NCBI GenBank assembly: GCA_036399335.1
Contig: DASWNF010000005.1
Coordinates: forward strand, 6,069 to 70,068
DNA length: 64,000 nucleotides
DNA from: Minisyncoccota bacterium
GTDB taxonomy: Bacteria; Patescibacteriota; Minisyncoccia; Phycocordibacterales; Phycocordibacteraceae
Reading direction: 5' to 3'
Positions 7,612-58,400 of this stretch are shown here, piece by piece; within the stretch, counting starts at the first letter, position 1; each line of letters starts with the position of its first letter. The position numbers and the translations under genes were made by a program. The notes beneath the pieces were generated by a model. It searched no databases, was not told the origin of the DNA, and saw only the letters and a list, made by a program, of their open reading frames with translations.

Positions 7612-9675
7612 ATGAATACTGAGCCTGAGGTCGGATACGAGATGTTGAGCCAAATGCTCGATGCGCTCGACTTCCCTGCATACACCTTCGATAAGGACAG
7701 GAAGGTTTTGTTTGCTAATGCCGCTATGCGGTCAGTACTCCCCGTTTCCCCGCCCGGCTCAGCCATCGGTGCCGGTGTGAAGGACTATTTCATCGAGCAC
7801 CAGTACTATGACGTCGACGGCAACCTGCTCGACTACCCGAACGACTCTGCCGTAGACCGTGCGCTCCGAGGCCAGGAGACGCGCGACCTCATGCTCGAGC
7901 ACCGCAACCTGAAGGACCACACGCATGAGTGGATCAGCGTGTCATGCGTCCCCGTCATGAAGGACGGCGCCTTCAGCTACGGCATCCTCTGGTATCGCGA
8001 CATTTCCCGCATACAGTCGCATGAAGCCAAGCTCCGTTTTCTCCTCAAGGCAACGCGCGTCCTTACGATAACGACCGACTTCCGGAAGCGCCTTCGCGAG
8101 AAGGCGGCGCTCGCCGTCCCCACCCTCGCTGACTGGTGCGGCATCGAGATCGTTACGCCCGACGGCATGCTTGAGCGCGTCGTGCTGGTGCATCGTGACC
8201 CGAAGAAAATCGAGTGGATTAAGGAATACGAAGAAAAGTACCTGAACCCAGCAGGGATCGAGAAGACTTCGGAACGCGTCATCCGCACCGGTAAGCCGGA
8301 ATTCACGCCCCGCGTGACCCGCGAAATGATCGAGCAAATACCGAATGTCACCGAGGAGCAGAAGCAGGATATCTACCGGCTCAGCCTGACCTCGATCATG
8401 GTGCTGCCCATCGGGAACCCTGACCGCAGGCTCGGCATCCTCACGCTCGCCTACGCCGAGTCCGGCCGCGAGTATACGGAGGAGGACTTCTCCTTCTTTG
8501 AGGAGTTTGCCCGTCACTTGGGCGTCCTCCTTGAGAACGCGCGGTTGTATAACGAGATAAACGAACGGGACCTCTACAAGGACATGTTCCTTGCTTCCCT
8601 TTCGCACGAGCTCCGGAACCCCCTTGCCCCAATCAAGACATCACTCGAGCTTTTGAAACTCCATAATCCTGAGGAGGCGACCGCGGCTGAGGTGAAGGTA
8701 ATCGAGCACCAGTTCGACCACATGGCGCGGCTCCTGAACGATCTTCTTGATGCGACGCGCTTCGTGCGCGGCAAGATCCGAATCGAGACCGAGGCCATAG
8801 ACCTGCGGGAAGTCCTCGATGATGTCGTAAAGGCCCACGAGCCGGTTGCGCGCGAGAAGACGGTCGAGCTCATTGTCGAGGTTGCGGATACCCCGCTTAT
8901 CGTAGACGCCGATCGCACCCGCATCGAGCAGGCCATGACGAACGTACTTGGTAATGCCGTTAAGTTTACGCCCGAAGGCGGGAAAGTGACAGTACGGGCG
9001 GCGCAGGACGGAAACGGGAATGCCGTGCTTACGATACAAGATACGGGCGTAGGCATTACGAGCGACGAGCTCGCACGCGTCTTCGAGCCGTATTACCAAA
9101 GCGAGCGCGTGAAGGGCGGCAATACCGGGCTCGGTATCGGCCTGCGCCTCGTGCATGAAATCATGCGCCTCCACGGGGGTACCATTACGGCGCAAAGCAG
9201 CGGCTCGGGGCTTGGAAGCGAATTCACGCTTACCTTGCCGCTTGCAAAGGCTGCTGAAGCCGCTACCATGCCCGAACCAGCACCATCCGTTATGTCCGCC
9301 CCCGAACCTGCCCTGCCCCCAAAGAACATACTGGTCATTGACGACAACCAGGCCGCTGCCGATGCCCTCGTGCGCCTCTTCAGTGCGCTCGGCTGGGATG
9401 CGGTCGCCCGGTACTCCGCACGTGAAGCCTTCGCCCACATGGACGAGTCGTCCGCCGACATCATTTTCGCCGACATCGGCATGCCTGAAATGAACGGATA
9501 TGAGTTCGTAAAGACCTTGCGCGAAAACGGGTATACGGACGTACCGGTCGTCGCACTTACGGGTTACGGCCTTGAGGAAGACCGCGAACGCGCGCTCGCT
9601 GCGGGCTTCAACGACCATCTCACGAAGCCCGTAGGCGTGGACGAGCTCCGCCGGGTTATCGAAGCGTTGACCTAG
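7612..9675 (+). CDS. hybrid sensor histidine kinase (PAS-GAF-HisKA-HATPase) with C-terminal receiver domain
   Basis: 687 aa; H-box LSHELRNPLAPI, N/G boxes (VLGNAVKFT, DTGVGI, GLGIGL), C-terminal REC (ILVIDDN...DIIFADIGMPEMNGYEF...LTKP). Confidence 0.9.
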   Translation: MNTEPEVGYEMLSQMLDALDFPAYTFDKDRKVLFANAAMRSVLPVSPPGSAIGAGVKDYFIEHQYYDVDGNLLDYPNDSAVDRALRGQETRDLMLEHRNLKDHTHEWISVSCVPVMKDGAFSYGILWYRDISRIQSHEAKLRFLLKATRVLTITTDFRKRLREKAALAVPTLADWCGIEIVTPDGMLERVVLVHRDPKKIEWIKEYEEKYLNPAGIEKTSERVIRTGKPEFTPRVTREMIEQIPNVTEEQKQDIYRLSLTSIMVLPIGNPDRRLGILTLAYAESGREYTEEDFSFFEEFARHLGVLLENARLYNEINERDLYKDMFLASLSHELRNPLAPIKTSLELLKLHNPEEATAAEVKVIEHQFDHMARLLNDLLDATRFVRGKIRIETEAIDLREVLDDVVKAHEPVAREKTVELIVEVADTPLIVDADRTRIEQAMTNVLGNAVKFTPEGGKVTVRAAQDGNGNAVLTIQDTGVGITSDELARVFEPYYQSERVKGGNTGLGIGLRLVHEIMRLHGGTITAQSSGSGLGSEFTLTLPLAKAAEAATMPEPAPSVMSAPEPALPPKNILVIDDNQAAADALVRLFSALGWDAVARYSAREAFAHMDESSADIIFADIGMPEMNGYEFVKTLRENGYTDVPVVALTGYGLEEDRERALAAGFNDHLTKPVGVDELRRVIEALT

Positions 9676-11641: not shown

Positions 11642-14200
11642 ATGTCACTACTCGGCGAGTACAACCGCAAGCGTTCCTTCAAGAAGACGCCCGAGCCGAA
11701 GGGCGCCGTTAAGAAGTCCGCCGGCCCGCTCCATTTCGTCGTCCAGAAGCATGACGCCACGCGCCTCCACTATGACTTCCGTCTCGAGATCGATGGCGTG
11801 CTCAAGAGCTGGGCAGTGCCGAAGGGGCCTTCCCTGAACCCGTCCGACAAGCGCCTCGCCATGATGACGGAAGACCACCCGTATTCGTATAAGGACTTCG
11901 AGGGCGTTATCCCTGCGGGCGAATATGGCGGGGGCGACGTAATCGTCTGGGACACCGGGGTCTTCGCAAGCAGCGAGTCGTCAGGCCCGGAGGATGGCCA
12001 CAAGAAGCTCAAGTCCGGGCTCCATAGAGGCGAGCTGTCATTCGTACTGTTTGGCGAGAAGCTCAAAGGAGGGTTCAAGCTCGTGAAGATACAAAACGGC
12101 AAGGAGGACAACGCCTGGCTCCTTATGAAGGCAAAGGACGAGTATGCTGAAAAACGCGACGTCACCGAAGATACCGCCTCCGTGCTCTCGGGGCGCATAC
12201 TTCCCCGCGATGTCCCTGGTAAGTTAGTGAAAAAGGGCGCGGGCCTGCAGGCAGTTACTGCCGGTATGCCGAAAAAGGAAAAGACCCCCGCGCCTCCCGC
12301 AAAGAAGGCCAAACGAGGCACGGACCCGATGCCCCGCGACGTGAGCCCCATGCTCGCGACGCTTATCGATGCGCCCTTCGACCGCGCCGGGTGGATATAC
12401 GAGATGAAGTGGGACGGCTACCGGGCAGTAGCCGAGGTAGAAGGCGGCGACGTGCGGCTCTACTCACGTAACGGCAAGTCGTTTGCCGGCACCTACACTC
12501 CCGTCGTTACGGCACTCAAAAGTCTCGGGCACGATGCCGTGCTCGACGGCGAGATAATCGCGCTTAAGGACGGCCGTCCTGATTTCCACGCGCTCCAACA
12601 ATATAAGGACGCGCCCGTCCCGCTCCAGTACGCCATCTTCGACGCCCTATGGATTAACGGCGAGGACTTGCGCGAGCTCCCGCTCATTGAGCGTAAGGAG
12701 CGTCTTGTCGGCATAATTCCCGAAAGCCCCCACCTCTTCGTAAGCGAGCACATCGAGGAGCACGGCACGGCTTTTTTCGAGGAGATGCGCAAGCAATCCT
12801 TCGAGGGCATGCTCGCCAAAGACGGCCAAAGCCGGTACGTGACGAAGTCTCGCTCGAAGTCCTGGCTCAAGGTGAAGACGAGCAACGAGCAGGAGGCCGT
12901 TATCGTCGGCTACACCGAACCGCGCGGTTCACGTAAGAGCCTCGGCGCGCTCGTACTCGCGGCGCACATTAATGGGGTGCTTACCTACATCGGCCACAGC
13001 GGCGGCGGCTTTACGGGCAAGGAGCTCGCCGACCTGTGCAAGAAACTGTCGAAGGTTAAGGTGAATAAATCTCCCATCGCGGAAAAGGTCCCCATCAACT
13101 CCCCCATTACCTGGGTAAAGCCTCACTACGTGTGCCAGGTGAAGTTTACCGAATGGACGCCAAGTGGGCGCATGCGCCACCCTATTTACGTAGGGCTGCG
13201 GGTAGATAAGGAGGCGAAGGACGTCGTGAAGGAATCTCCCGAGGACGTAGGTGGAGGTAGTGAACTTACACCCACACCACCGAAGAAGGCGGCTGCACGT
13301 GCAAAGGCCGCCACAGCGACTGAAACCCCGTTTACGAACCTTACGAAGGTGTACTGGGAGGAGGAAGGCATTACGAAGGGCGACCTCATCGACTACTACC
13401 AGGCAATGGCGCCCCTCATGCTCCCCTACCTCAAGGACCGCCCTGAAAACTTAAACCGGCACCCGAACGGCTGGAAGGGCAAGAATTTCTACCAGAAGGA
13501 CATGAAGGCCGAGCTCCCCGACTTCGCGCGGTCAGTCGAGATATGGTCGGAGAGCAACAAGGCGGAGCTCCGGTATCTCGTCTGCGACAATGAGGAGACC
13601 CTGCTCTATATGGCAAACCTCGGCTGCATTGAAATTAACCCGTGGAATTCGCGCGTCACTTCGATCGATAATCCGGACTACATGGTATTCGACCTTGATC
13701 CCGATACCAATACGATGGACGAGCTCGTCGAAGTAGCGCAGGAATTCCATAAGGTACTTACGCGTGCGTGCGAGGAGCACTATATAAAGACTTCCGGCAA
13801 GACCGGGCTCCATATCTACGTACCGCTTAACGGCCGCTACGGCTACGACCAGATACGCACCTTCTCGGAGCTTGTCTGCCGACTCGTGCACCGGAAATTC
13901 CCGAAGAATACGAGTCTTGAGCGGAGCGTCTCAAAACGCAAGGGACAAATATACCTCGATTATATGCAGAATCGCTTCGGGCAGACTATTGCTGCGCCGT
14001 ATTCCGTGCGTCCAGCAGCAGGCGCGACGGTCTCTACGCCGCTCGAATGGAGCGAGGTGCGCAAAGGGCTCGACCCGACCAAGTTTACGATCAAGACTAT
14101 CGGGAAGCGCCTCGAGAAAAAAGGAGACCTCTGGGAACCCGTACTCGGGAAGGGCGTCGACCTCGCGGCCTCGATCAAGTGCCTTGAGGCGGAGTTCTAG
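11642..14200 (+). CDS. ligD: multidomain ATP-dependent DNA ligase LigD (phosphoesterase - ligase - polymerase/primase)
   Basis: 852 aa; N-terminal PE domain (HFVVQKHDATRLHYDFRLE), ligase motif I EMKWDGYR, C-terminal primase-like polymerase domain (MVFDLDPD...). Confidence 0.92.
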   Translation: MSLLGEYNRKRSFKKTPEPKGAVKKSAGPLHFVVQKHDATRLHYDFRLEIDGVLKSWAVPKGPSLNPSDKRLAMMTEDHPYSYKDFEGVIPAGEYGGGDVIVWDTGVFASSESSGPEDGHKKLKSGLHRGELSFVLFGEKLKGGFKLVKIQNGKEDNAWLLMKAKDEYAEKRDVTEDTASVLSGRILPRDVPGKLVKKGAGLQAVTAGMPKKEKTPAPPAKKAKRGTDPMPRDVSPMLATLIDAPFDRAGWIYEMKWDGYRAVAEVEGGDVRLYSRNGKSFAGTYTPVVTALKSLGHDAVLDGEIIALKDGRPDFHALQQYKDAPVPLQYAIFDALWINGEDLRELPLIERKERLVGIIPESPHLFVSEHIEEHGTAFFEEMRKQSFEGMLAKDGQSRYVTKSRSKSWLKVKTSNEQEAVIVGYTEPRGSRKSLGALVLAAHINGVLTYIGHSGGGFTGKELADLCKKLSKVKVNKSPIAEKVPINSPITWVKPHYVCQVKFTEWTPSGRMRHPIYVGLRVDKEAKDVVKESPEDVGGGSELTPTPPKKAAARAKAATATETPFTNLTKVYWEEEGITKGDLIDYYQAMAPLMLPYLKDRPENLNRHPNGWKGKNFYQKDMKAELPDFARSVEIWSESNKAELRYLVCDNEETLLYMANLGCIEINPWNSRVTSIDNPDYMVFDLDPDTNTMDELVEVAQEFHKVLTRACEEHYIKTSGKTGLHIYVPLNGRYGYDQIRTFSELVCRLVHRKFPKNTSLERSVSKRKGQIYLDYMQNRFGQTIAAPYSVRPAAGATVSTPLEWSEVRKGLDPTKFTIKTIGKRLEKKGDLWEPVLGKGVDLAASIKCLEAEF

Positions 14201-39228: not shown

Positions 39229-40233
39229 CTAGACGAACACGGGTTCGGGTTCGAGCGTAATGCCGAAACGCTCGCGCACCATGCCTTGGATGTCTGAAAT
39301 CAACTCGGCCAGCTCTTCGTACGTCGCCTCGCCGTTATTAACGACTACGAGCGCATTCTGGGGGTACAGTGATAGGTTCCCGAAAGACTTCCCTTTTAAC
39401 CCAAGGAGGTCGATAAGCCAGCCCGCGCCCACCTTATATGTCCCGTCTGGAAGCCCGAAAACCACCGGCTTCTCAAATTCGCTTATGAATCGCTCCGCGA
39501 CCGAGGCGGGCACGATGGGGTTTTTGAAGAAGGAGCCCACGGAGGCGAGGTCCCGGGGGTCCGGGAGCTTCGTTTTCCGTATGTCGATAATGGCCGTGCG
39601 GATGTCACGGAGCGTGGGGCTTCCTATGCCCTGCTTCTCGAAATATGCCTTCACGCCCGGATAGTCGGGGACGGTAGGAGTCTCTTTTGAAAGCCTAAGT
39701 GTTACGTGCGTGATAACGTATCGGGCATCGTGTTTGAATATGCTGTCGCGGTATGAAAAGCCGCACTCCTCTCTTGTGAGCCGGTGCACGGAGCCGGTTT
39801 CGTGCTCGTATACTTCGACGTTTTCCAGGACATCGGCAATTTCCGTACCGTAGGCACCGACATTCTGTATCGGCGTCGCCCCGGTACGACCCGGGATAGC
39901 CGAAAGCGACTCTATGCCTGAGAAGCTCGCGATAACCGCACGCGCAACGACCGAGTCCCACTCCTCTCCGGCACCGATGCGCGCTCGGCCGTCGTCGCCA
40001 AGCTCGAACCCCGGTATGCGCAGGTCGAGCACTACTCCCTCATACCGTTCGGGCATGGTGAATATCGTATTCGAACCCCCACCGAGCACGACGAACGGAA
40101 GCCCCTTTTCGCGGATGAAGGCGAAGGCCTTTGGCAGGTCTTCGACGGCGCCTATCTCGATGAGATACTGTGCCACCGGCCCCATGCGGAAGGTCGTGCG
40201 GGGGGCGAGGGGGATATCCTCCTGTACGTTCAT
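39229..40233 (-). CDS. murB: UDP-N-acetylenolpyruvoylglucosamine reductase MurB
   Basis: 334 aa from MNVQEDIPLAPRTTFRMGPVA; FAD-binding domain; the upstream half of track ORF 39229..41355 is antisense of murA and rejected. Confidence 0.88.
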   Translation of the reverse strand: MNVQEDIPLAPRTTFRMGPVAQYLIEIGAVEDLPKAFAFIREKGLPFVVLGGGSNTIFTMPERYEGVVLDLRIPGFELGDDGRARIGAGEEWDSVVARAVIASFSGIESLSAIPGRTGATPIQNVGAYGTEIADVLENVEVYEHETGSVHRLTREECGFSYRDSIFKHDARYVITHVTLRLSKETPTVPDYPGVKAYFEKQGIGSPTLRDIRTAIIDIRKTKLPDPRDLASVGSFFKNPIVPASVAERFISEFEKPVVFGLPDGTYKVGAGWLIDLLGLKGKSFGNLSLYPQNALVVVNNGEATYEELAELISDIQGMVRERFGITLEPEPVFV

Positions 40234-40247
40234 ATCATATATGATAT
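40232..40247. promoter_or_regulatory. 16-bp perfect palindrome ATATCATATATGATAT in the murB/murA divergent spacer (candidate HTH operator)
   Basis: self-complementary 16-mer overlapping murB start codon, 5-11 bp from the murA start; only AT-rich element in a GC-rich neighbourhood. Confidence 0.5.
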
Positions 40248-40251
40248 ACCT

Positions 40252-41772
40252 GTGGGCATGACTAAAACAAGCGAGCAGTCGAAGATCGGCTTCTTCATCC
40301 GGAAGCTCCGTGAAGAGAAAGGAATGACCCAGAAGGCCTTTGCCGAGGCCTTGGCGACGTCCCAGAGCGCCGTCGCTCGCATGGAGAGCGGTCGCCAGAA
40401 CCTCACCCTGGGCGAGCTTGGGAAAATCAGCGAAGTACTTGAGCGCCGCCTCATCAACCTCCAGGAGTCGATAGACTTCCGCATTACGGGCGGACGCAAG
40501 CTGAAGGGCGCCATCACCATGAACGGCTCGAAGAACGGCGCCGTAAACATGATCTGCGCTTCCTTGCTGAATCGCGGCAAGACCGTCCTCCAGGGCATCC
40601 CGCGCATTGAGGAGGTATACCGGTACATCGAGCTCGTCGAGAGCCTCGGCGTCTCGGTCAAGTGGACCTCTCCCGATACGCTCGAAATACAGCCGCCGGC
40701 GAAGCTCGACTTTGCGAACATCGACGCCGACGTTGCCGCGCGTACCCGGTCCTTTACCTTCATCGGCGCACTCATCCACTGGAAGATGCCGTTCCGTCTT
40801 CCCCATTCGGGCGGGTGCAAGATGGGTGAGCGCACCATTTCCGCGCACCGCCACGGTCTTGAGAAGTTCGGCGTATCCATAAAGACTCGTGAGCACTATT
40901 ACGACATTAAGGCCGGCAAACTCACTCCTGCGGAAATCATCCTCTACGAGTCGAGCGATACGGGCGCGATCAACGTGCTCCTTGCCGCAGCCCGCACGCC
41001 CGGCGTCTCGCGCATAAAGTTTGCCCCGCCGAACTACCAGGTACAGGACGTCTGCTTCCTGCTTGAGAAGATGGGCGTGAAGATTGAAGGCATCGGTTCG
41101 ACGACGCTTACCGTCCACGGCGTGAAGGATATTAACGAAACCGTCGAGCACTACAACAGCGAAGACCCGATTGAGGCGATGTTCTTCCTCGCCGCAGCCA
41201 TCGTCACCGAATCGAAGCTGACGATAAAGCGTGTGTCGATTGACTTCATCGAGCTTGAGCTTGAGAAGCTCCGCCTGATGGGGCTTAAGTTCGAGCTCGG
41301 GAAGCGGTACCTCTCGCGGAACGGCCGTACGACGCTCACCGACCTCATCATCCACCCGTCCGAGCTGAAGGCGCTACCGGATAAGCTCCATACCCAGCCG
41401 TTTCCGGGGCTTCAGAACGACAACCTTCCCTTCTTCGTCCCTATTGCGACCACCGCCACGGGTTCGTCCCTTATCCATGACTGGACGTGGGAGAACCGCG
41501 CCATTTACTTCACCGAACTCAATCGCATGGGCGCAAAGGTCACCCTGCTCGACCCACATCGCGCGCTCGTAGAAGGGCCGACCAAGCTCAAAGCCGCACA
41601 GATCGTCTGTCCGCCGGCACTTCGTCCGTCTGCGATTATCCTTATCGCCATGCTCGGTGCCGAAGGCACGTCCACCCTTCGGAACGTATACTCCATCCAG
41701 CGCGGGTATGCAGAAGTCGCCGAACGCCTCAATGCCCTCGGGGCCAAGGTGGAAGTGATACGGAATATGTAG
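40252..41772 (+). CDS. murA: UDP-N-acetylglucosamine 1-carboxyvinyltransferase MurA with N-terminal XRE (Cro/C1) helix-turn-helix domain
   Basis: 506 aa single ORF (GTG 40252 or ATG 40258). First about 65 aa: KIGFFIRKLREEKGMTQKAFAEALATSQSAVARMESGRQNLTLGELGKISEVL (HTH_XRE). Rest is full MurA: GSKNGAV (Lys22), HSGGCKMGERT (Cys115 loop), RGYAEVAERLNALGA C-terminus. Confidence 0.9.
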   Translation: MGMTKTSEQSKIGFFIRKLREEKGMTQKAFAEALATSQSAVARMESGRQNLTLGELGKISEVLERRLINLQESIDFRITGGRKLKGAITMNGSKNGAVNMICASLLNRGKTVLQGIPRIEEVYRYIELVESLGVSVKWTSPDTLEIQPPAKLDFANIDADVAARTRSFTFIGALIHWKMPFRLPHSGGCKMGERTISAHRHGLEKFGVSIKTREHYYDIKAGKLTPAEIILYESSDTGAINVLLAAARTPGVSRIKFAPPNYQVQDVCFLLEKMGVKIEGIGSTTLTVHGVKDINETVEHYNSEDPIEAMFFLAAAIVTESKLTIKRVSIDFIELELEKLRLMGLKFELGKRYLSRNGRTTLTDLIIHPSELKALPDKLHTQPFPGLQNDNLPFFVPIATTATGSSLIHDWTWENRAIYFTELNRMGAKVTLLDPHRALVEGPTKLKAAQIVCPPALRPSAIILIAMLGAEGTSTLRNVYSIQRGYAEVAERLNALGAKVEVIRNM

Positions 41773-41806: not shown

Positions 41807-41892
41807 TGGTGCGCCGGGCAGGATTCGAACCTGCGTAGGATAAATCCGCTTGGTTTACAGCCAAGTGCAATTGACCACTCTGCCACCGACGC
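41807..41892 (-). tRNA. tRNA-Tyr (anticodon GUA), class II with long variable arm, CCA encoded
   Basis: reverse complement reads GCGTCGG TG GCAG AGTGGTCAATTGC ACTTGG CTGTAAA CCAAG CGGATTTATCCTACG CAGG TTCGAAT CCTGC CCGGCGC A CCA; acceptor 7 bp (one G-U), anticodon loop CUGUAAA, T-loop TTCGAAT. Confidence 0.85.
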
Positions 41893-43006: not shown

Positions 43007-44064
43007 AGCTCTCGGTAATCATTCCCTGCTATAACGAGTCCGCGCACCTCAAGGAGGTCCTTGTGCGTACGTATGCCGTTACCCTGCCTCCCGGCTGGAG
43101 CCTTGAGGTAGTCGTTGTTGATGACGGCAGCGACCAAGAGACGAAGGACGCCGTTGCTGTTGCCCTCAACGCCCACCCCGACCTCGTGCACGTCGAGCGC
43201 GAACTGAATGGCGGAAAGGGTGCGGCGCTTAAGTCTGGCTTTGGGGCGGCCACGGGCGACTACCTCGTAATCCTCGATGCTGACCCGGAGTACGACCCGA
43301 ACGACATCCCGAGGCTTCTTGCTCCCGTCATCGAAGGGCCTGCGCGCGTCGTCTTCGGCGTGCGCGACCTAAAGGACAACAACGCCCCCGGACGCTTCCG
43401 CTACTACTGGGGTGGACGCCTCATGAACGGCCTCTTCAACGTGGCTTTCGGGACCCGGCTCTCCGATATCACCGTCTGCCTGAAGTTATTCCCGCACGCC
43501 CTCGTGCCGGAGCTTGTCGTGCAGCCTTCGGACGACTTCGTCTTCGATGCCATAGAGCTCACGCGTGTGCTTGCGCGCGAGCCGTTCACTGAAGTCCCCG
43601 TATCCTACGCCCCCCGCACCGCACTTGAAGGCAAGAAATTGAAGGCAAGCCACGGTATACGCATGGCCATGCGCATCATAGAGCTGCGGCTCGGGCGGAT
43701 GGCGCGCATCGCCCGGTTCCTCATCGTCGGGAGCACGGCGGCAGCCATTAACCTTTCCATACTTGTCCTCCTGACCGAGGGTATCGGCGTCTGGTACCTC
43801 CTCTCCGAAGGGATCGCTTTTTTGGTTGCGCTTTCCTTTAACTTCTTTTGCCAGCGCCTCTGGGTTTTCAGGAACCGCGAAAAGAACCGCATGCGACAGG
43901 CGGGCACCTTCCTTACCGTTAACCTCGTGAACCTCGCACTTAACGTCGGCCTCCTTTATATATTCGTCGAGTACTTCGGGCTCTGGTACGTCGTCGGCCA
44001 GGTGCTTGCCTCCGTCATTATTGCCATAGAGAGCTACGTCGTATACCGCACCATCTTCCGTTAA
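43003..44064 (+). CDS. GT2 glycosyltransferase (polyprenol-phosphate sugar synthase-like) fused to C-terminal GtrA-like 4-TM domain
   Basis: 353 aa; MKLSVIIPCYNE...VVVVDDGSDQ...ILDADPEYDP (DxD) then GtrA-like RFLIVGSTAAAINLSILVLLTEGIGVWYLLSEG... Confidence 0.85.
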   Translation: MKLSVIIPCYNESAHLKEVLVRTYAVTLPPGWSLEVVVVDDGSDQETKDAVAVALNAHPDLVHVERELNGGKGAALKSGFGAATGDYLVILDADPEYDPNDIPRLLAPVIEGPARVVFGVRDLKDNNAPGRFRYYWGGRLMNGLFNVAFGTRLSDITVCLKLFPHALVPELVVQPSDDFVFDAIELTRVLAREPFTEVPVSYAPRTALEGKKLKASHGIRMAMRIIELRLGRMARIARFLIVGSTAAAINLSILVLLTEGIGVWYLLSEGIAFLVALSFNFFCQRLWVFRNREKNRMRQAGTFLTVNLVNLALNVGLLYIFVEYFGLWYVVGQVLASVIIAIESYVVYRTIFR

Positions 44065-45293
44065 CCCTGCACGAGTACGAGCATCTGCTTTCCGCGCCGC
44101 AGGAGCGCGAGGCCGTTATCAAAGTCTTCGCCGGCAATTACCGTATCTGCGCCCGTTACCGGGACGTCGTTTACGGTCACGCCCTTGGCGTCGATGAGCC
44201 TGCGGGCATCACCCTTGGAGGTCGCAAGCCCCGAGAGCGTGAGCGCGTCGACGACGAGCGTCCCAGGCATGGCGCGAAGCGACGGGGCCTCGGCGAGGAG
44301 CGCAGTGCGCTCGCTTGCGGATAGGCTGCCGAGCGCGCGGTCGCCGAAGAGTGACTCCGAAACGACGACGCAGCGGTGAGCCGCATCCTTGCCGTGGACT
44401 ATCTCGGTCACGGTGCGCGCAAGCGTCTTCTGTGCCTCCCGTTTCCCCGGGTTCCGCGAATGGAGCTCCATGAGCATGCCGATTTCGAGCACGGAGAGGA
44501 AGGTGTAGTACTTGAGGTAATTCTCGACGACAGTGTCAGGCTGGTTAAGCCAGAACTGGTAGAAGGCGTAGGGCGAGGTCTTCTGTGGGTCGAGCCACAC
44601 CGCGTTCCCTTCTGATTTACCGAACTTCTTTCCGCTCGCATCGGTCACGATGGGCGTCGTGAGCGCGTATGCTTCCTTGCCGACCTTACGGCGGATGAGC
44701 TCGACTCCTGAGAGAAGATTCGTCCACTGGTCGTTCCCTCCTATCTGAAGGTCGGTGCCGTACTTCTGGTTCAGGATGAAATAGTCGTAGCCCTGGAGGA
44801 GCGAGTAGGCGAACTCCGTGTAGGAAATGCTGTCGTCCTCGTTGTCGAGGCGGCGGCGAATGACGTCGCGCTTCACGAGTTCGTTCACGGTGAAGTGCTT
44901 GCCAATATCGCGCAGGAAATCAACGAGCCCTACTTTGAGGAGCCAGTCGGCGTTGTCGACGACTTTCACGCGGTGGCCGATGATCGCCTGCATCTGCGCC
45001 TTGATGGCCCGCTTATTCTTTGCGACCGTGCGCTCGTCTGCAAGCGGCCGCTCCCCTTTCTCCTTCGGGTCGCCGATCATTCCCGTACCGCCACCGACAA
45101 GAAGCTGGACGGTATGTCCGGCGTCAGCCAGGCGCTTCATCGTGAGTACGACGAGCAGGTTGCCCGCGTGCATCGAGTCGGCTGTAGGGTCGACGCCAAG
45201 GTAGACGGTGCGATGCTTCCCGAGGATCGCATCGATATCCGCAGAGGAATTCTCGACGAGGCCGCGCGCTTTCAGGTCTTCTGCTAAGGTCAT
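44061..45293 (-). CDS. tyrS: tyrosine--tRNA ligase
   Basis: 410 aa; HIGH variant (DSMHAGNLLV), KFGKS, C-terminal S4 domain. Confidence 0.92.
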   Translation of the reverse strand: MTLAEDLKARGLVENSSADIDAILGKHRTVYLGVDPTADSMHAGNLLVVLTMKRLADAGHTVQLLVGGGTGMIGDPKEKGERPLADERTVAKNKRAIKAQMQAIIGHRVKVVDNADWLLKVGLVDFLRDIGKHFTVNELVKRDVIRRRLDNEDDSISYTEFAYSLLQGYDYFILNQKYGTDLQIGGNDQWTNLLSGVELIRRKVGKEAYALTTPIVTDASGKKFGKSEGNAVWLDPQKTSPYAFYQFWLNQPDTVVENYLKYYTFLSVLEIGMLMELHSRNPGKREAQKTLARTVTEIVHGKDAAHRCVVVSESLFGDRALGSLSASERTALLAEAPSLRAMPGTLVVDALTLSGLATSKGDARRLIDAKGVTVNDVPVTGADTVIAGEDFDNGLALLRRGKQMLVLVQG

Positions 45294-45313: not shown

Positions 45314-45919
45314 CTAATGCGCCGCCCCCCAGGGCTCTTGGCCGTACGCTTCTATTGACCGGCTGAGATGGCTTCGCATTATGCGTACAGTACTGAGAAG
45401 GGTCGTTCCCGTTTTGGCATACGCTTCAAATGACGTGCCCTCGATGCCTGAAATCATCGGGTCTACTATGGGTAGGAAGTAGCTTTGCATCCACTCGGTC
45501 CCGAGGCTCCCTATCGATATGCTTGCCTGGGACAGGTTATCAATAAGGTCGGAGAGCTTAATGAGACGGACTTCTTCCCCGTTTTCACTCACCTGGCGCG
45601 TATAGGCATCCGGATGGTCGTCCCCAAACGTATTGGTCAGGCTCTCAATATATGAGAGCGCCGCGTGCCCGGATGCCTCGGCTATCTCTTCCTTGGCGGC
45701 GGCGGTGTCTTCGAGCAAATCATGGCCTATGGCACCGCACAGGAGGGCGGAGAGCGCATCAGGATCGCGGCATTCGCCGGATTGCGTGAGCGCGGACGAG
45801 AGTATCGTCTGCACGCGTCTTGCATGGACTAGGGCCGGCGTGCCGTCCTGTCGGGCCTGTCCTTTGTGCAGTCGGGAGGCGAGCTCGTCCATCCGCGCCA
45901 GTCGCTCCTCGGGAGTCAT
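45314..45919 (-). CDS. stand-alone HD-domain hydrolase of the SpoT/Mesh1 (small alarmone hydrolase) type
   Basis: 201 aa from MTPEERLARMDELASRLHKGQARQDGTPALVHARRV (RelA/SpoT HD N-terminal signature), HD dyad in GAIGHDLLEDT; track ORF extends upstream to 46054. Confidence 0.6.
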   Translation of the reverse strand: MTPEERLARMDELASRLHKGQARQDGTPALVHARRVQTILSSALTQSGECRDPDALSALLCGAIGHDLLEDTAAAKEEIAEASGHAALSYIESLTNTFGDDHPDAYTRQVSENGEEVRLIKLSDLIDNLSQASISIGSLGTEWMQSYFLPIVDPMISGIEGTSFEAYAKTGTTLLSTVRIMRSHLSRSIEAYGQEPWGAAH

Positions 45920-45990
45920 GCCTCCACTATCGCGCACCTTGTCCCTTTCGACAAGTTGTAGTTTAATGCGAATGGACAAGGAGAACCGCC

Positions 45991-46614
45991 ATGACGTATG
46001 AGGACTGGATTCATTACGCCGGCGCCTCGGTAGAGGCGCTCTCACGGACGGCAAACGGGGTCAACGACCCGTCGCTATCGCATGACAAGCCCGGGCTGAG
46101 TATCGAAAGCGGTCCTGCGCTTAGGGCGCAGGCCGCAGCGAACATTCGGCGGGCTGTCGACTTCGCCTGGCATTCCCGGGACAGCGTACGCGGTGCACGC
46201 GAACTCTGCGCGTTCATTGAGACCCTTGCGGCCCAACTGAACGAAGGGCTCGTGCCTGCAGACCGCCCGCTATTGCGAACGTGGCACACGAAGTATTCGG
46301 GACCCGTCGCGCCTGAAGACGTGCCCGCGGCATTTGGTGCCTTCTGCGTGAAGCACGCGACAAGCCTGGTACACGACTGGTCGATAGCTGAGGCCATATT
46401 TATGGCTGCGGAAATCGAACGGGACTTCAACTACCACGTCCATCCGCTTGCCGACGGCTGCGGAAGGGTCTCGCGGATACTCGGCGCGCTCGTGCTTCTG
46501 CGGGTCGGGTCACGTCCCGCCCGCTTTGAAGACCGGACGGAGTACTACGCGCTTATGCGTGCGTCGTCCGAAGCCTGGCACGAAGCCTATGAGCGCCAAC
46601 TGCTCCGTGCGTAA
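45991..46614 (+). CDS. Fic/DOC family protein with non-canonical active-site motif HPLADGCGRVSR
   Basis: 207 aa; motif aligns to HPFx[DE]GNGRxxR with F to L and N to C substitutions, followed by ILGALVLLRVG helix. Confidence 0.65.
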   Translation: MTYEDWIHYAGASVEALSRTANGVNDPSLSHDKPGLSIESGPALRAQAAANIRRAVDFAWHSRDSVRGARELCAFIETLAAQLNEGLVPADRPLLRTWHTKYSGPVAPEDVPAAFGAFCVKHATSLVHDWSIAEAIFMAAEIERDFNYHVHPLADGCGRVSRILGALVLLRVGSRPARFEDRTEYYALMRASSEAWHEAYERQLLRA

Positions 46615-46653
46615 CATAAAGGGGCCCGCGACCGGTTGGTCGTGGCCCCTCTC

Positions 46654-47325
46654 TTATCCGTCGATGCCGACGTATTTGAGGTCGCGGAACATCTCGGGCC
46701 GCAGGTTGAAGAAACGTTCTTCCACCGGCGGCTTAACGTCCACTGCCTCGACCTCGTCCCAGTCCCGTAAGTCAAACGGGAGCGGCGCCTCGACGTCGCG
46801 GATAGTCAGCATCGGCATGGCGAGTCCGGCACCGACCAGTGGATAGTTCCGGTGGATCCCGTCGAGGAGTGCGGACCCGTTATCCCGGCCGATCTCAATG
46901 ATAGGCGGAAGGTAGTGGGCCACCACCCGGGTACCGTCCTGCATCCTCCCGAAGGCGATGAAGGCACCGAGGCCGGTTGGCCCGCTCGGTGTCGCAAACC
47001 CTTCGAGGATCTGCTGGAAGCGTTCGACCAAGGCGGTATATTTGCCCCGTTCAATGAACCGTTGGCCGACCCTCGCGGACCGTGCCGAAAGGTTCATGGT
47101 GCCAATCCACTTTCCCGTGTACGGATGGGTCTTACCGTCCTTGCACACGACACTTTCGAGAAGCCTCCTCAGGTATTGGTGGTGCATGAGCTGAACGCAG
47201 TCAATGATCTCCAGCTGGCGCAAGGAGACCACCTGCGTGACGGAATCCCGTGGGTAGAAAAGGTCGGCCTCGGTGTCGAGACCCGTCCTGCCCAGGAACT
47301 CCGCCACCGGTATGGGTGTAAACAC
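46654..47325 (-). CDS. hypothetical protein, possibly ParB/sulfiredoxin-like fold
   Basis: 223 aa; LLDGIHRNY recalls the DGHHR motif of ParB-like nucleases; weak. Confidence 0.3.
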   Translation of the reverse strand: MFTPIPVAEFLGRTGLDTEADLFYPRDSVTQVVSLRQLEIIDCVQLMHHQYLRRLLESVVCKDGKTHPYTGKWIGTMNLSARSARVGQRFIERGKYTALVERFQQILEGFATPSGPTGLGAFIAFGRMQDGTRVVAHYLPPIIEIGRDNGSALLDGIHRNYPLVGAGLAMPMLTIRDVEAPLPFDLRDWDEVEAVDVKPPVEERFFNLRPEMFRDLKYVGIDG

Positions 47326-58172: not shown

Positions 58173-58400
58173 TTAAAGGCGCCTCACGATGCGAGCCCGT
58201 CCCCCGTACGGGTCAGTGACAAGTTCTACCTTGTCCCCGACGAGTACACGGATACGGTGAAGGCGCATTTTCCCCGCGAGATAGGCGAGCAAAAGCTCAC
58301 CTTCGGGCATGCGGATACGGAATAACGAATTAGGTAGCACTTCTTCTACAGTGCCTGTTGTTGGTTCCGCTTTTCCTTCCTCCATGTGTGGCTTAGCCAT
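58173..58400 (-). CDS. infA: translation initiation factor IF-1
   Basis: 75 aa from [10 protein letters not shown]1-like OB fold [31 protein letters not shown]. Confidence 0.9.

Follow-up and report, generated by a model that had tools for sequence, protein, structure and literature searches.

A cysteine-variant clade of Fic-fold proteins and its apparent coupling to a dedicated small alarmone hydrolase-type HD subfamily

The stretch of DNA analysed here (64,000 nucleotides of contig DASWNF010000005.1, hereafter the window) belongs to a metagenome-assembled genome of Candidatus Paceibacterota, within the candidate phyla radiation (CPR). It carries a gene for a Fic-fold protein in which the Asn of the Fic motif is replaced by Cys (VGB97_01150, 45991..46614, plus strand; 207 amino acids). 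The protein belongs to a large clade that is a new motif class of the Fic superfamily with a new conserved partnership, and that appears to be functionally coupled to a dedicated subfamily of HD hydrolases. The data described below directly support the fold, the homology of the motif, the conservation of the residues needed for catalysis, the linkage of the genes and their fusion. The HD gene of the window (VGB97_01145, 45314..45919, minus strand; 201 amino acids counted from the ATG) is divergent from the Fic-like gene, and a ParB/sulfiredoxin (Srx)-like gene related to 'ParB-CE' (VGB97_01155, 46654..47325, minus strand; 223 amino acids) converges on it. NCBI annotates all three products as hypothetical proteins. 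The genes are real, as each has homologues at E ≤ 1e-24. An earlier reading of the letters alone (the original prediction) had described the open reading frames (ORFs), the motif HPLADGCGRVSR and a 71-bp spacer with GACAAG repeats. All three ORFs and the motifs are present at the positions first given, and the spacer and its repeats were confirmed in the sequence.

The plus-strand protein is a Fic-fold protein, and the placement of its motif is confirmed. An alignment of 55 family members gave an AlphaFold2 model with a pLDDT (predicted local distance difference test) of 96.3. Searched against the PDB with Foldseek, this model gave 33 matches at E ≤ 0.001, all of them Fic-domain proteins, including FICD, IbpA Fic2 and Caenorhabditis elegans Fic-1, with template modelling (TM) scores of 0.54–0.69 normalised to the query. 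The single sequence finds FICD and a Bordetella Fido protein (8uqu) in the PDB at E ~5e-5 with phmmer, the segment hvHPLaDGcGRvSRil of the window protein lying opposite ihPFiDGNGRtSRll of FICD. The family profile matches FICD at E = 7.6e-16, aligned from the flap (yRTw/fRTTQ) through the motif and beyond; the best bacterial Fic protein reaches E = 1.5e-8, which leaves FICD far ahead as the solved relative. The flap segment R96-T-W (46276..46284, plus strand) aligns to the RTTQ flap of FICD, and R96 is invariant in the family. The active-site motif HPLADGCGRVSR (H151 to R162, residues 151–162; 46441..46476, plus strand) aligns to HPFIDGNGRTSR of FICD. The model, the Foldseek matches and the family profile bear out the original call of a Fic protein, and the HPLADGCGR segment, the homology of which had been left to be checked, aligns column by column with the HPFxDGNGR loop of FICD. 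PHROGs placed the protein in unknown-function families only, PADLOC returned only weak matches to SoFic and PDC-S04, and the family had no name in any source queried.

Fic enzymes are defined by the motif HxFx(D/E)GN(G/K)RxxR. The window protein retains the catalytic H151 and D155, has Cys157 at motif position 7, G158 and R159 at positions 8 and 9, and R162 at position 12. A word-indexed search found two relatives only, both with DGCGR. An exhaustive search with a hidden Markov model (HMM) found at least 1061 representative proteins at E ≤ 1e-3, 350 of them at E ≤ 1e-10. Most clade members fall under the Pfam Fic threshold. A motif was recognisable in 141 of the 151 sequences examined, and the His and Asp are kept in all 141. 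Position 7 is Cys in 116 (82%), Val in 17 (12%), Met in 3 and Asn in none; Ile also replaces the Cys in some clade members. Position 9 is Arg or Lys in 141/141, and position 12 is Lys or Arg in 113/141. Written as a consensus, the motif of the family reads H-x-[FLWY]-x-D-G-[C 82%/V 12%]-G-[R/K]-x-x-[K/R]. A 2015 census of Fic motifs distinguished five classes, with the Asn kept in all of them (PMC4454073). The motif Asn of VopS stabilises the β-phosphate of ATP, whereas the α-phosphate is held by the GNG nest in FICD (PMC8097203). The change from Asn to Cys is thus a clade-wide trait rather than decay; base, metal ligand and backbone nest have all been kept, and the contact to the leaving group of the donor has probably been remodelled. 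The Cys would shape the pocket rather than act as a nucleophile, because Val, Met or Ile replace it in some members. In a literature search, no paper mentioned a DGCGR, DGCGK or DGVGR motif or linked Fic domains to small alarmone hydrolases, and papers on polyvalent proteins and on NTP-conflict systems did not mention Fic.

Outside the motif, S18, R19, G23 and R96 are invariant in the 55-sequence alignment, and K33, N51 and E143 are near-invariant. S18, R19 and G23, with the likewise conserved T20, lie in a loop, SRTANG in the window protein (residues 18–23; 46042..46059, plus strand), which follows the family pattern S-R-T-x-x-G. From its spacing and topology, this SR[TS]xxG loop, located ahead of the first core helix, would be equivalent to the class II inhibitory helix. 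The would-be Glu position (22) is occupied by Lys, Asn, Gln or Arg, with Glu in 1 of 137 sequences. The inhibitory motif (S/T)xxxE(G/N), which the original prediction had suggested looking for, is absent from the window protein. The de-AMPylation activity of FICD requires its Glu (PMC8097203); a clade without this residue might plausibly leave erasure to a separate enzyme.

The product of the divergent gene is predicted to be a stand-alone phosphohydrolase of the Mesh1/small alarmone hydrolase (SAH) type, with all catalytic motifs present. With phmmer, the single sequence matches PaSAH (6yvc, 2e-6) and Drosophila Mesh1 (3nqw, 1e-5) in the PDB. A profile of its subfamily matches Mesh1 at 6e-17, human MESH1 at 2.5e-12 and Rel hydrolase domains at ~1e-9, and also Lmo0812, PaSAH and a (p)ppApp hydrolase. 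The HD...ED catalytic motif H66 D67 L L E70 D71 (45707..45724, minus strand) aligns to HDxxED of Mesh1 and PaSAH; the ORF contains LHKGQARQDGTPALVHARRV and GHDLLEDT. Across a 26-sequence alignment of the subfamily, H66, D67, E70, D71, D124 and N128 are invariant and H32 nearly so, and all of these residues align with Mesh1 and PaSAH. The subfamily has its own conserved C-terminal extension of ~70 residues with the consensus LG.KW..SYFLPIV.PM. The match to NCBIfam spoT_relA covers model positions 3–77 only, i.e. the N-terminal part, and there is no synthetase domain. These matches, the motifs and the extent of the spoT_relA alignment agree with the original description of a small alarmone hydrolase lacking a synthetase. 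PHROGs assigns the protein to 'metal-dependent phosphohydrolase'; PADLOC gave nothing for the HD or the ParB-like protein of the window. The chemistry known for this HD family takes (pyro)phosphate off the 2′ or 3′ position of ribose. Its enzymes remove the 3′-pyrophosphate from (p)ppGpp and (p)ppApp, and also take pyrophosphate off tRNA ends and the 2′-phosphate off NADPH. The active sites of SAH-type HD enzymes are built for nucleotide ribose (pyro)phosphates. No RelA/SpoT homologue (RSH) was found among ten window ORFs scanned, nine of which are among the largest (423–852 amino acids).

The HMMs of the three families were run over all fetched loci, among them 57 metagenome loci for which the Fic-like profile was the only query. 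Loci were made non-redundant by clustering at 80% identity, and a locus was regarded as evaluable if each flank measured at least 700 bp or if the HD gene was seen. Of 35 evaluable non-redundant loci, 15 have an SAH-like HD gene no more than 400 bp from the Fic-like gene, two of the 15 having been reached from the HD side. The order is Fic>HD in seven, HD<>Fic in five and HD>Fic in three. The Fic>HD bicistrons (7 non-redundant loci) include tight ones with gaps of 15–70 bp (L018, L029, L038, L040 and L046). Approached from the HD side, a Fic-like gene is found in 2 of 3 contexts examined. The Paceibacterota contigs L001 and L003 have the same divergent HD/Fic pair and convergent ParB-like gene, with protein identities of 35–50%. 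In Paceibacterota genomes the cluster sits amid housekeeping genes (tyrS, dnaJ/dnaK) in conserved synteny.

The two domains are also found in one polypeptide. Five representative fusions show both orders, HD-Fic in P0152, P0161, P0196 and P0109 and Fic-HD in P0118. The 1652-residue protein P0200, from NCBI, contains two cyclic nucleotide (cNMP)-binding domains, a Zeta-toxin kinase (residues 1015–1138), a Cys-variant Fic domain (1243–1444) and an SAH-like HD domain (1458–1643). The gene orders differ and the fusions occur in two motif subtypes (HP.. and HFF..), which argues against a pairing by inherited synteny alone. We conclude from these gene arrangements that the Fic-like clade and the dedicated HD subfamily are coupled in evolution and probably also in function. 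The HD protein, which had been described as unusual to see alone, is by adjacency and fusion a conserved partner of the Fic-like gene. At one locus (L013, 1208–6539), a Fic-like>HD bicistron is followed by genes for dCTP deaminase, a cytidylyltransferase-like protein, dCMP deaminase, thymidylate synthase and dihydrofolate reductase. In the window, the tyrosyl-tRNA synthetase gene (44061–45293, minus strand) directly abuts the HD gene, and the sole tRNA gene, tRNA-Tyr (GTA) (41807–41892, minus strand), lies ~2 kb from that synthetase gene.

Other enzymes recur beside the Fic-like domain. A Zeta_toxin P-loop kinase domain is present in 19 of 71 multidomain clade members, 13 of which also match the AAA_33 kinase model, and an APH domain is present in three. 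Further fused domains are His_Phos_1, NUDIX, 2H phosphoesterase, GrpB, Csx3, cNMP-binding, TCAD9, NAD-epimerase and a WXG100-like N-terminus. Fic-like domains occur at the C-terminus of very long proteins, and P0160 is the one with the WXG100-like N-terminus. A protein combining TCAD9/APH-kinase with a generic HD domain (996 amino acids in L064, 1932–4919, plus strand) is encoded immediately upstream of a distant Cys-Fic branch at seven loci (L064, L048, L055, L058, L061, L063 and L067). By domain content, the recurring theme is one of kinases and of phosphohydrolases with nucleotide-type substrates.

The clade resembles FICD/HYPE and the class II Fic AMP-transferases (PF02661) in its fold, the Arg-Thr of the flap, the His and Asp, the Gly-x-Gly-Arg nest and the trailing Arg. 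It differs from FICD in having Cys or Val for the motif Asn and the SRTxxG loop where FICD has TVAIEN, and its conserved N-terminal residues S18, R19, K33 and N51 are distinct. Doc (HxFx(D/N)(A/G)NKR) is also a Fic-fold enzyme, one in which small motif changes invert the donor and turn AMP transfer into phosphoryl transfer. Doc has the Asn, and Lys at position 8; in the clade, positions 7 and 8 are taken by Cys and Gly (Gly158 in the window protein). The partner of Doc is the Phd antitoxin, that of the clade the HD hydrolase. We read the Cys variant as altered chemistry because Doc gives a precedent for a motif change that alters chemistry. To our knowledge, each known departure from the Fic motif (Doc, AnkX) proved to mean new chemistry. 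The HD protein shares with Mesh1, PaSAH and PbcSpo the full H...HD..ED...D..N signature in a single domain, but its subfamily has the C-terminal extension and its partner has the Fic fold and is not an RSH synthetase. The arrangement recalls the toxSAS-SAH pairs (FaRel/ATfaRel) and bifunctional Rel (HD-SYNTH), where an SAH-type HD domain that destroys the product of a nucleotide-transferring enzyme is encoded next to that enzyme or precedes it in one polypeptide; the HD-then-transferase order is that of four among the five representative fusions. In contrast to toxSAS and Rel, the transferase of the clade has the Fic fold and not the RelA/SpoT nucleotidyltransferase fold. The clade is often fused to P-loop kinases of the Zeta-toxin/AvrRxo1 type, the substrates of which are nucleotide-linked and are phosphorylated on sugar or ribose hydroxyls; the window encodes no such kinase.

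Our preferred reading, to which we give somewhat better than an even chance, is that the Cys-variant protein is a catalytically competent phosphotransferase of the Fic fold, its pocket for the donor phosphates being altered, and that it is coupled with an opposing HD hydrolase as a writer/eraser pair. Its catalytic activity, the direction of both reactions and the nature of the substrate are what we infer here. His151 as the base, a metal bound by Asp155 and the G-C-G-R phosphate nest would move a phosphate-containing group from a nucleotide donor to a hydroxyl, with the donor held unlike ATP in canonical AMPylators. The HD enzyme would hydrolyse either the product or the donor of the Fic-like enzyme. 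In some genomes a third, kinase-type partner may take part, which would be the ParB/Srx-like protein here and a Zeta-toxin-like or APH-like kinase elsewhere. In ATfaRel/toxSAS systems an SAH cancels the product of the neighbouring nucleotide transferase, an established case of an SAH in the role of type IV antitoxin (PMC7229694). The clade and its HD partner would offer a testable entry to a probably new Fic-catalysed reaction with a dedicated eraser, and they bear on the use of an alarmone-type hydrolase by ultra-small CPR bacteria, the stress signalling of which is poorly understood. If the product were a nucleotide or an RNA end instead of a protein, the Fic fold would have a wider range of substrates than is now known.

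Several observations weigh against a writer/eraser pair. Both window proteins score under their Pfam cut-offs, the Fic-like protein at 16 bits (cut-off 24 bits; PF02661) and the HD protein at 20.3 bits (cut-off 27.2 bits; HD_4). With Val, Met or Ile in place of the Cys, the clade has no universal catalytic nucleophile at this position. In 20 of the 35 evaluable loci there is no adjacent HD gene of the subfamily, so that the pairing is frequent and not obligatory, and in the window itself the two genes are divergent and not co-transcribed. For the fusions, an HD-Fic single polypeptide would suit opposing reactions no better than consecutive steps in the same pathway.

An alternative role as toxin and antidote has to be weighed, in which the Fic-like protein arrests growth by AMPylating or phosphorylating an essential protein and the HD protein, resembling a type IV antitoxin, removes the mark. 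Parallels exist in FicT, which acts on GyrB and ParE, and in Doc, which acts on EF-Tu. The tight spacing of the Fic>HD bicistrons (15–70 bp) fits such a pair, as do the C-terminal position of Fic-like domains in very long proteins (one with the WXG100-like N-terminus), many of them with Zeta-toxin domains, the weak SoFic and PDC-S04 matches in PADLOC and the precedent of SAH as a type IV antitoxin (PMC7229694). On the other side, tblastn gave no match for the window Fic-like protein in phages and plasmids or for the domain of a Zeta-fused member in plasmids, and a scan of viral contigs for the Fic-like family gave no match. The cluster is instead found amid housekeeping genes in the conserved synteny of Paceibacterota, and a toxin-antitoxin pair would not usually have toxin and antidote in one polypeptide. 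The sites of SAH-type HD enzymes suit nucleotide ribose (pyro)phosphates, and we know of none that deAMPylates proteins. We regard the toxin role as unlikely.

Loss of the Asn could also have abolished catalysis, leaving the Fic-like domain as a nucleotide-binding regulatory subunit or sensor for the HD protein or the kinases. The repeated fusion to enzymes and cNMP-binding domains is compatible with this, and non-catalytic Fic domains are documented, e.g. BepC (PMC8097203). Such dead domains, however, typically lack the acidic residue or the His, both of which are present in every one of the 141 motifs here, and the retention of the Gly-x-Gly-[R/K] nest over at least 1000 divergent representatives points to purifying selection on catalysis. 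Inactivity, one of the options in the original prediction, is thus improbable for a protein that keeps the His, the Asp, Gly-x-Gly and the Arg/Lys across a large family where Cys or Val rules. The closeness to FICD raises a different role, the modification of DnaK in the way that FICD modifies BiP. FICD is the best solved relative (7.6e-16 versus 1.5e-8 for the best bacterial Fic protein), and at four non-redundant loci (the window, L001/L036, L003 and L018) dnaJ, in most cases accompanied by dnaK-grpE, is 0.6–3 kb away from the cluster. The other ~30 non-redundant loci lack the chaperone genes, and shared synteny among related Paceibacterota explains the proximity. The conserved partner is the HD protein and not DnaK; the family also lacks the Glu that the regulatory switch of FICD needs. 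Of the roles considered, regulation of DnaK appears to us the least credible.

The writer/eraser reading can be taken one step further, in a form that we offer tentatively and think less probable even than the toxin role. The kinase, the Cys-variant Fic protein and the SAH-type HD protein would together form an RSH-independent system that makes and removes a ribose-(pyro)phosphorylated nucleotide or an RNA-end mark. A Fic-fold enzyme would then occupy the place of the RelA/SpoT synthetase beside an alarmone-type hydrolase. The triad would take the form of separate ParB-like, Fic-like and HD genes here and of a cNMP-regulated Zeta-kinase-Fic-HD polypeptide elsewhere. If this were true, genome-reduced CPR bacteria would have gained an alarmone-like circuit on a different synthetase fold.

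The ParB-like protein of the window has no match in Pfam, and its family profile has no significant match in a sequence search of the PDB. Three of its 26 homologues (P0032, P0039 and P0044; 39–43% identity) pass the threshold of Pfam PF24392, 'ParB CE domain'. The AlphaFold2 model has a pLDDT of 90; in the PDB it finds nothing better than weak matches to Atu1540 (2hwj, E = 0.02) and to SbnI, a serine kinase with a ParB fold. The motif DGIHR (residues 155–159; 46849..46863, minus strand) has D155, G156, H158 and R159 invariant in the family; we take this Arg-containing DGxHR/GxxR motif to be a signature of the ParB/Srx superfamily. The homologues passing PF24392, the motif and the weak fold matches make the ParB/Srx-like label first given to this ORF probable. 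Literature searches on PF24392, ParB-CE and TCAD9 yielded nothing relevant. The gene stands beside the Fic-like gene at six non-redundant loci (the window, L001/L036, L003, L012, L030 and L041), in the order Fic-HD-ParB on a single strand in L012, and is unlinked to the Fic/HD pair in three other CPR genomes. We regard it as a facultative third component, and it may be a phosphotransferase in the place held elsewhere by Zeta kinases. In two CPR genomes the unlinked ParB-CE-like gene adjoins a gene for an NT5C 5′(3′)-deoxyribonucleotidase (L008, 3399–3932; L010, 3391–3936), which hints at a role in nucleotide metabolism.

The divergent spacer (45920..45990, 71 bp, no strand assigned) has not been conserved among orthologous loci. 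It contains the inverted repeat CTTGTC-6 nt-GACAAG (45938..45955, no strand assigned) and a third GACAAG (45975..45980, plus strand), which runs into the Shine-Dalgarno sequence GGAG (45980..45983) ahead of the Fic-like gene. These had been put forward as operator half-sites, bound by a regulator of both divergent genes, and the presence of three copies within 43 bp, two of them as a 6-bp inverted repeat, speaks for that idea. Among 71-mers generated with a Markov model, 11% have a perfect 6-bp inverted repeat with a loop of 3–10 nt, and only 0.4% have the repeat with a third copy. A similar configuration is present in 18 of 1801 real 71-bp windows of this sequence, and GACAAG is over-represented in the window (50 matches versus 27 expected). 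The hexamer, and with it the inverted repeat, is absent from all four orthologous divergent spacers (L001, L003, L024 and L030), the third copy sits over the ribosome-binding site, and the cluster has no gene for a DNA-binding protein. The repeats are real but statistically unremarkable and not conserved; an operator is very improbable, and we rejected it on the chance statistics and the lack of conservation. A GACAAG-6 nt-CTTGTC element with the same spacing and the opposite order of arms is found at 58218–58235.

A −10-like hexamer lies exactly 6 nt upstream of the HD ATG in 5/5 divergent loci (the window, L001, L003, L024 and L030). It reads TATACT in three, TAGGAT in one and GATAGT in the window (45926–45931, minus strand). 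Because of this position 6 nt upstream of the start codon, the HD transcript may be leaderless. The Fic-like and ParB-like genes converge on a strong GC-rich hairpin (46620..46650, no strand assigned; −25.2 kcal/mol, z = −4.4 versus shuffles), which is likely a bidirectional terminator, though it has no T-run.

Elsewhere in the window, a complete three-domain LigD (3′-phosphoesterase, ATP-dependent ligase and primase-polymerase) is encoded at 11642–14200 (plus strand), in what is a small CPR genome. The 708-residue ORF at 39229–41355 (minus strand) has MurB domains at residues 396–708 only, its N-terminal ~390 residues having no Pfam match at E ≤ 1e-5; it may be a fusion or an over-extended ORF. 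A hybrid sensor kinase (7612–9675, plus strand) combines PAS, GAF, HisKA, HATPase and receiver domains and is a comparatively elaborate signalling protein.

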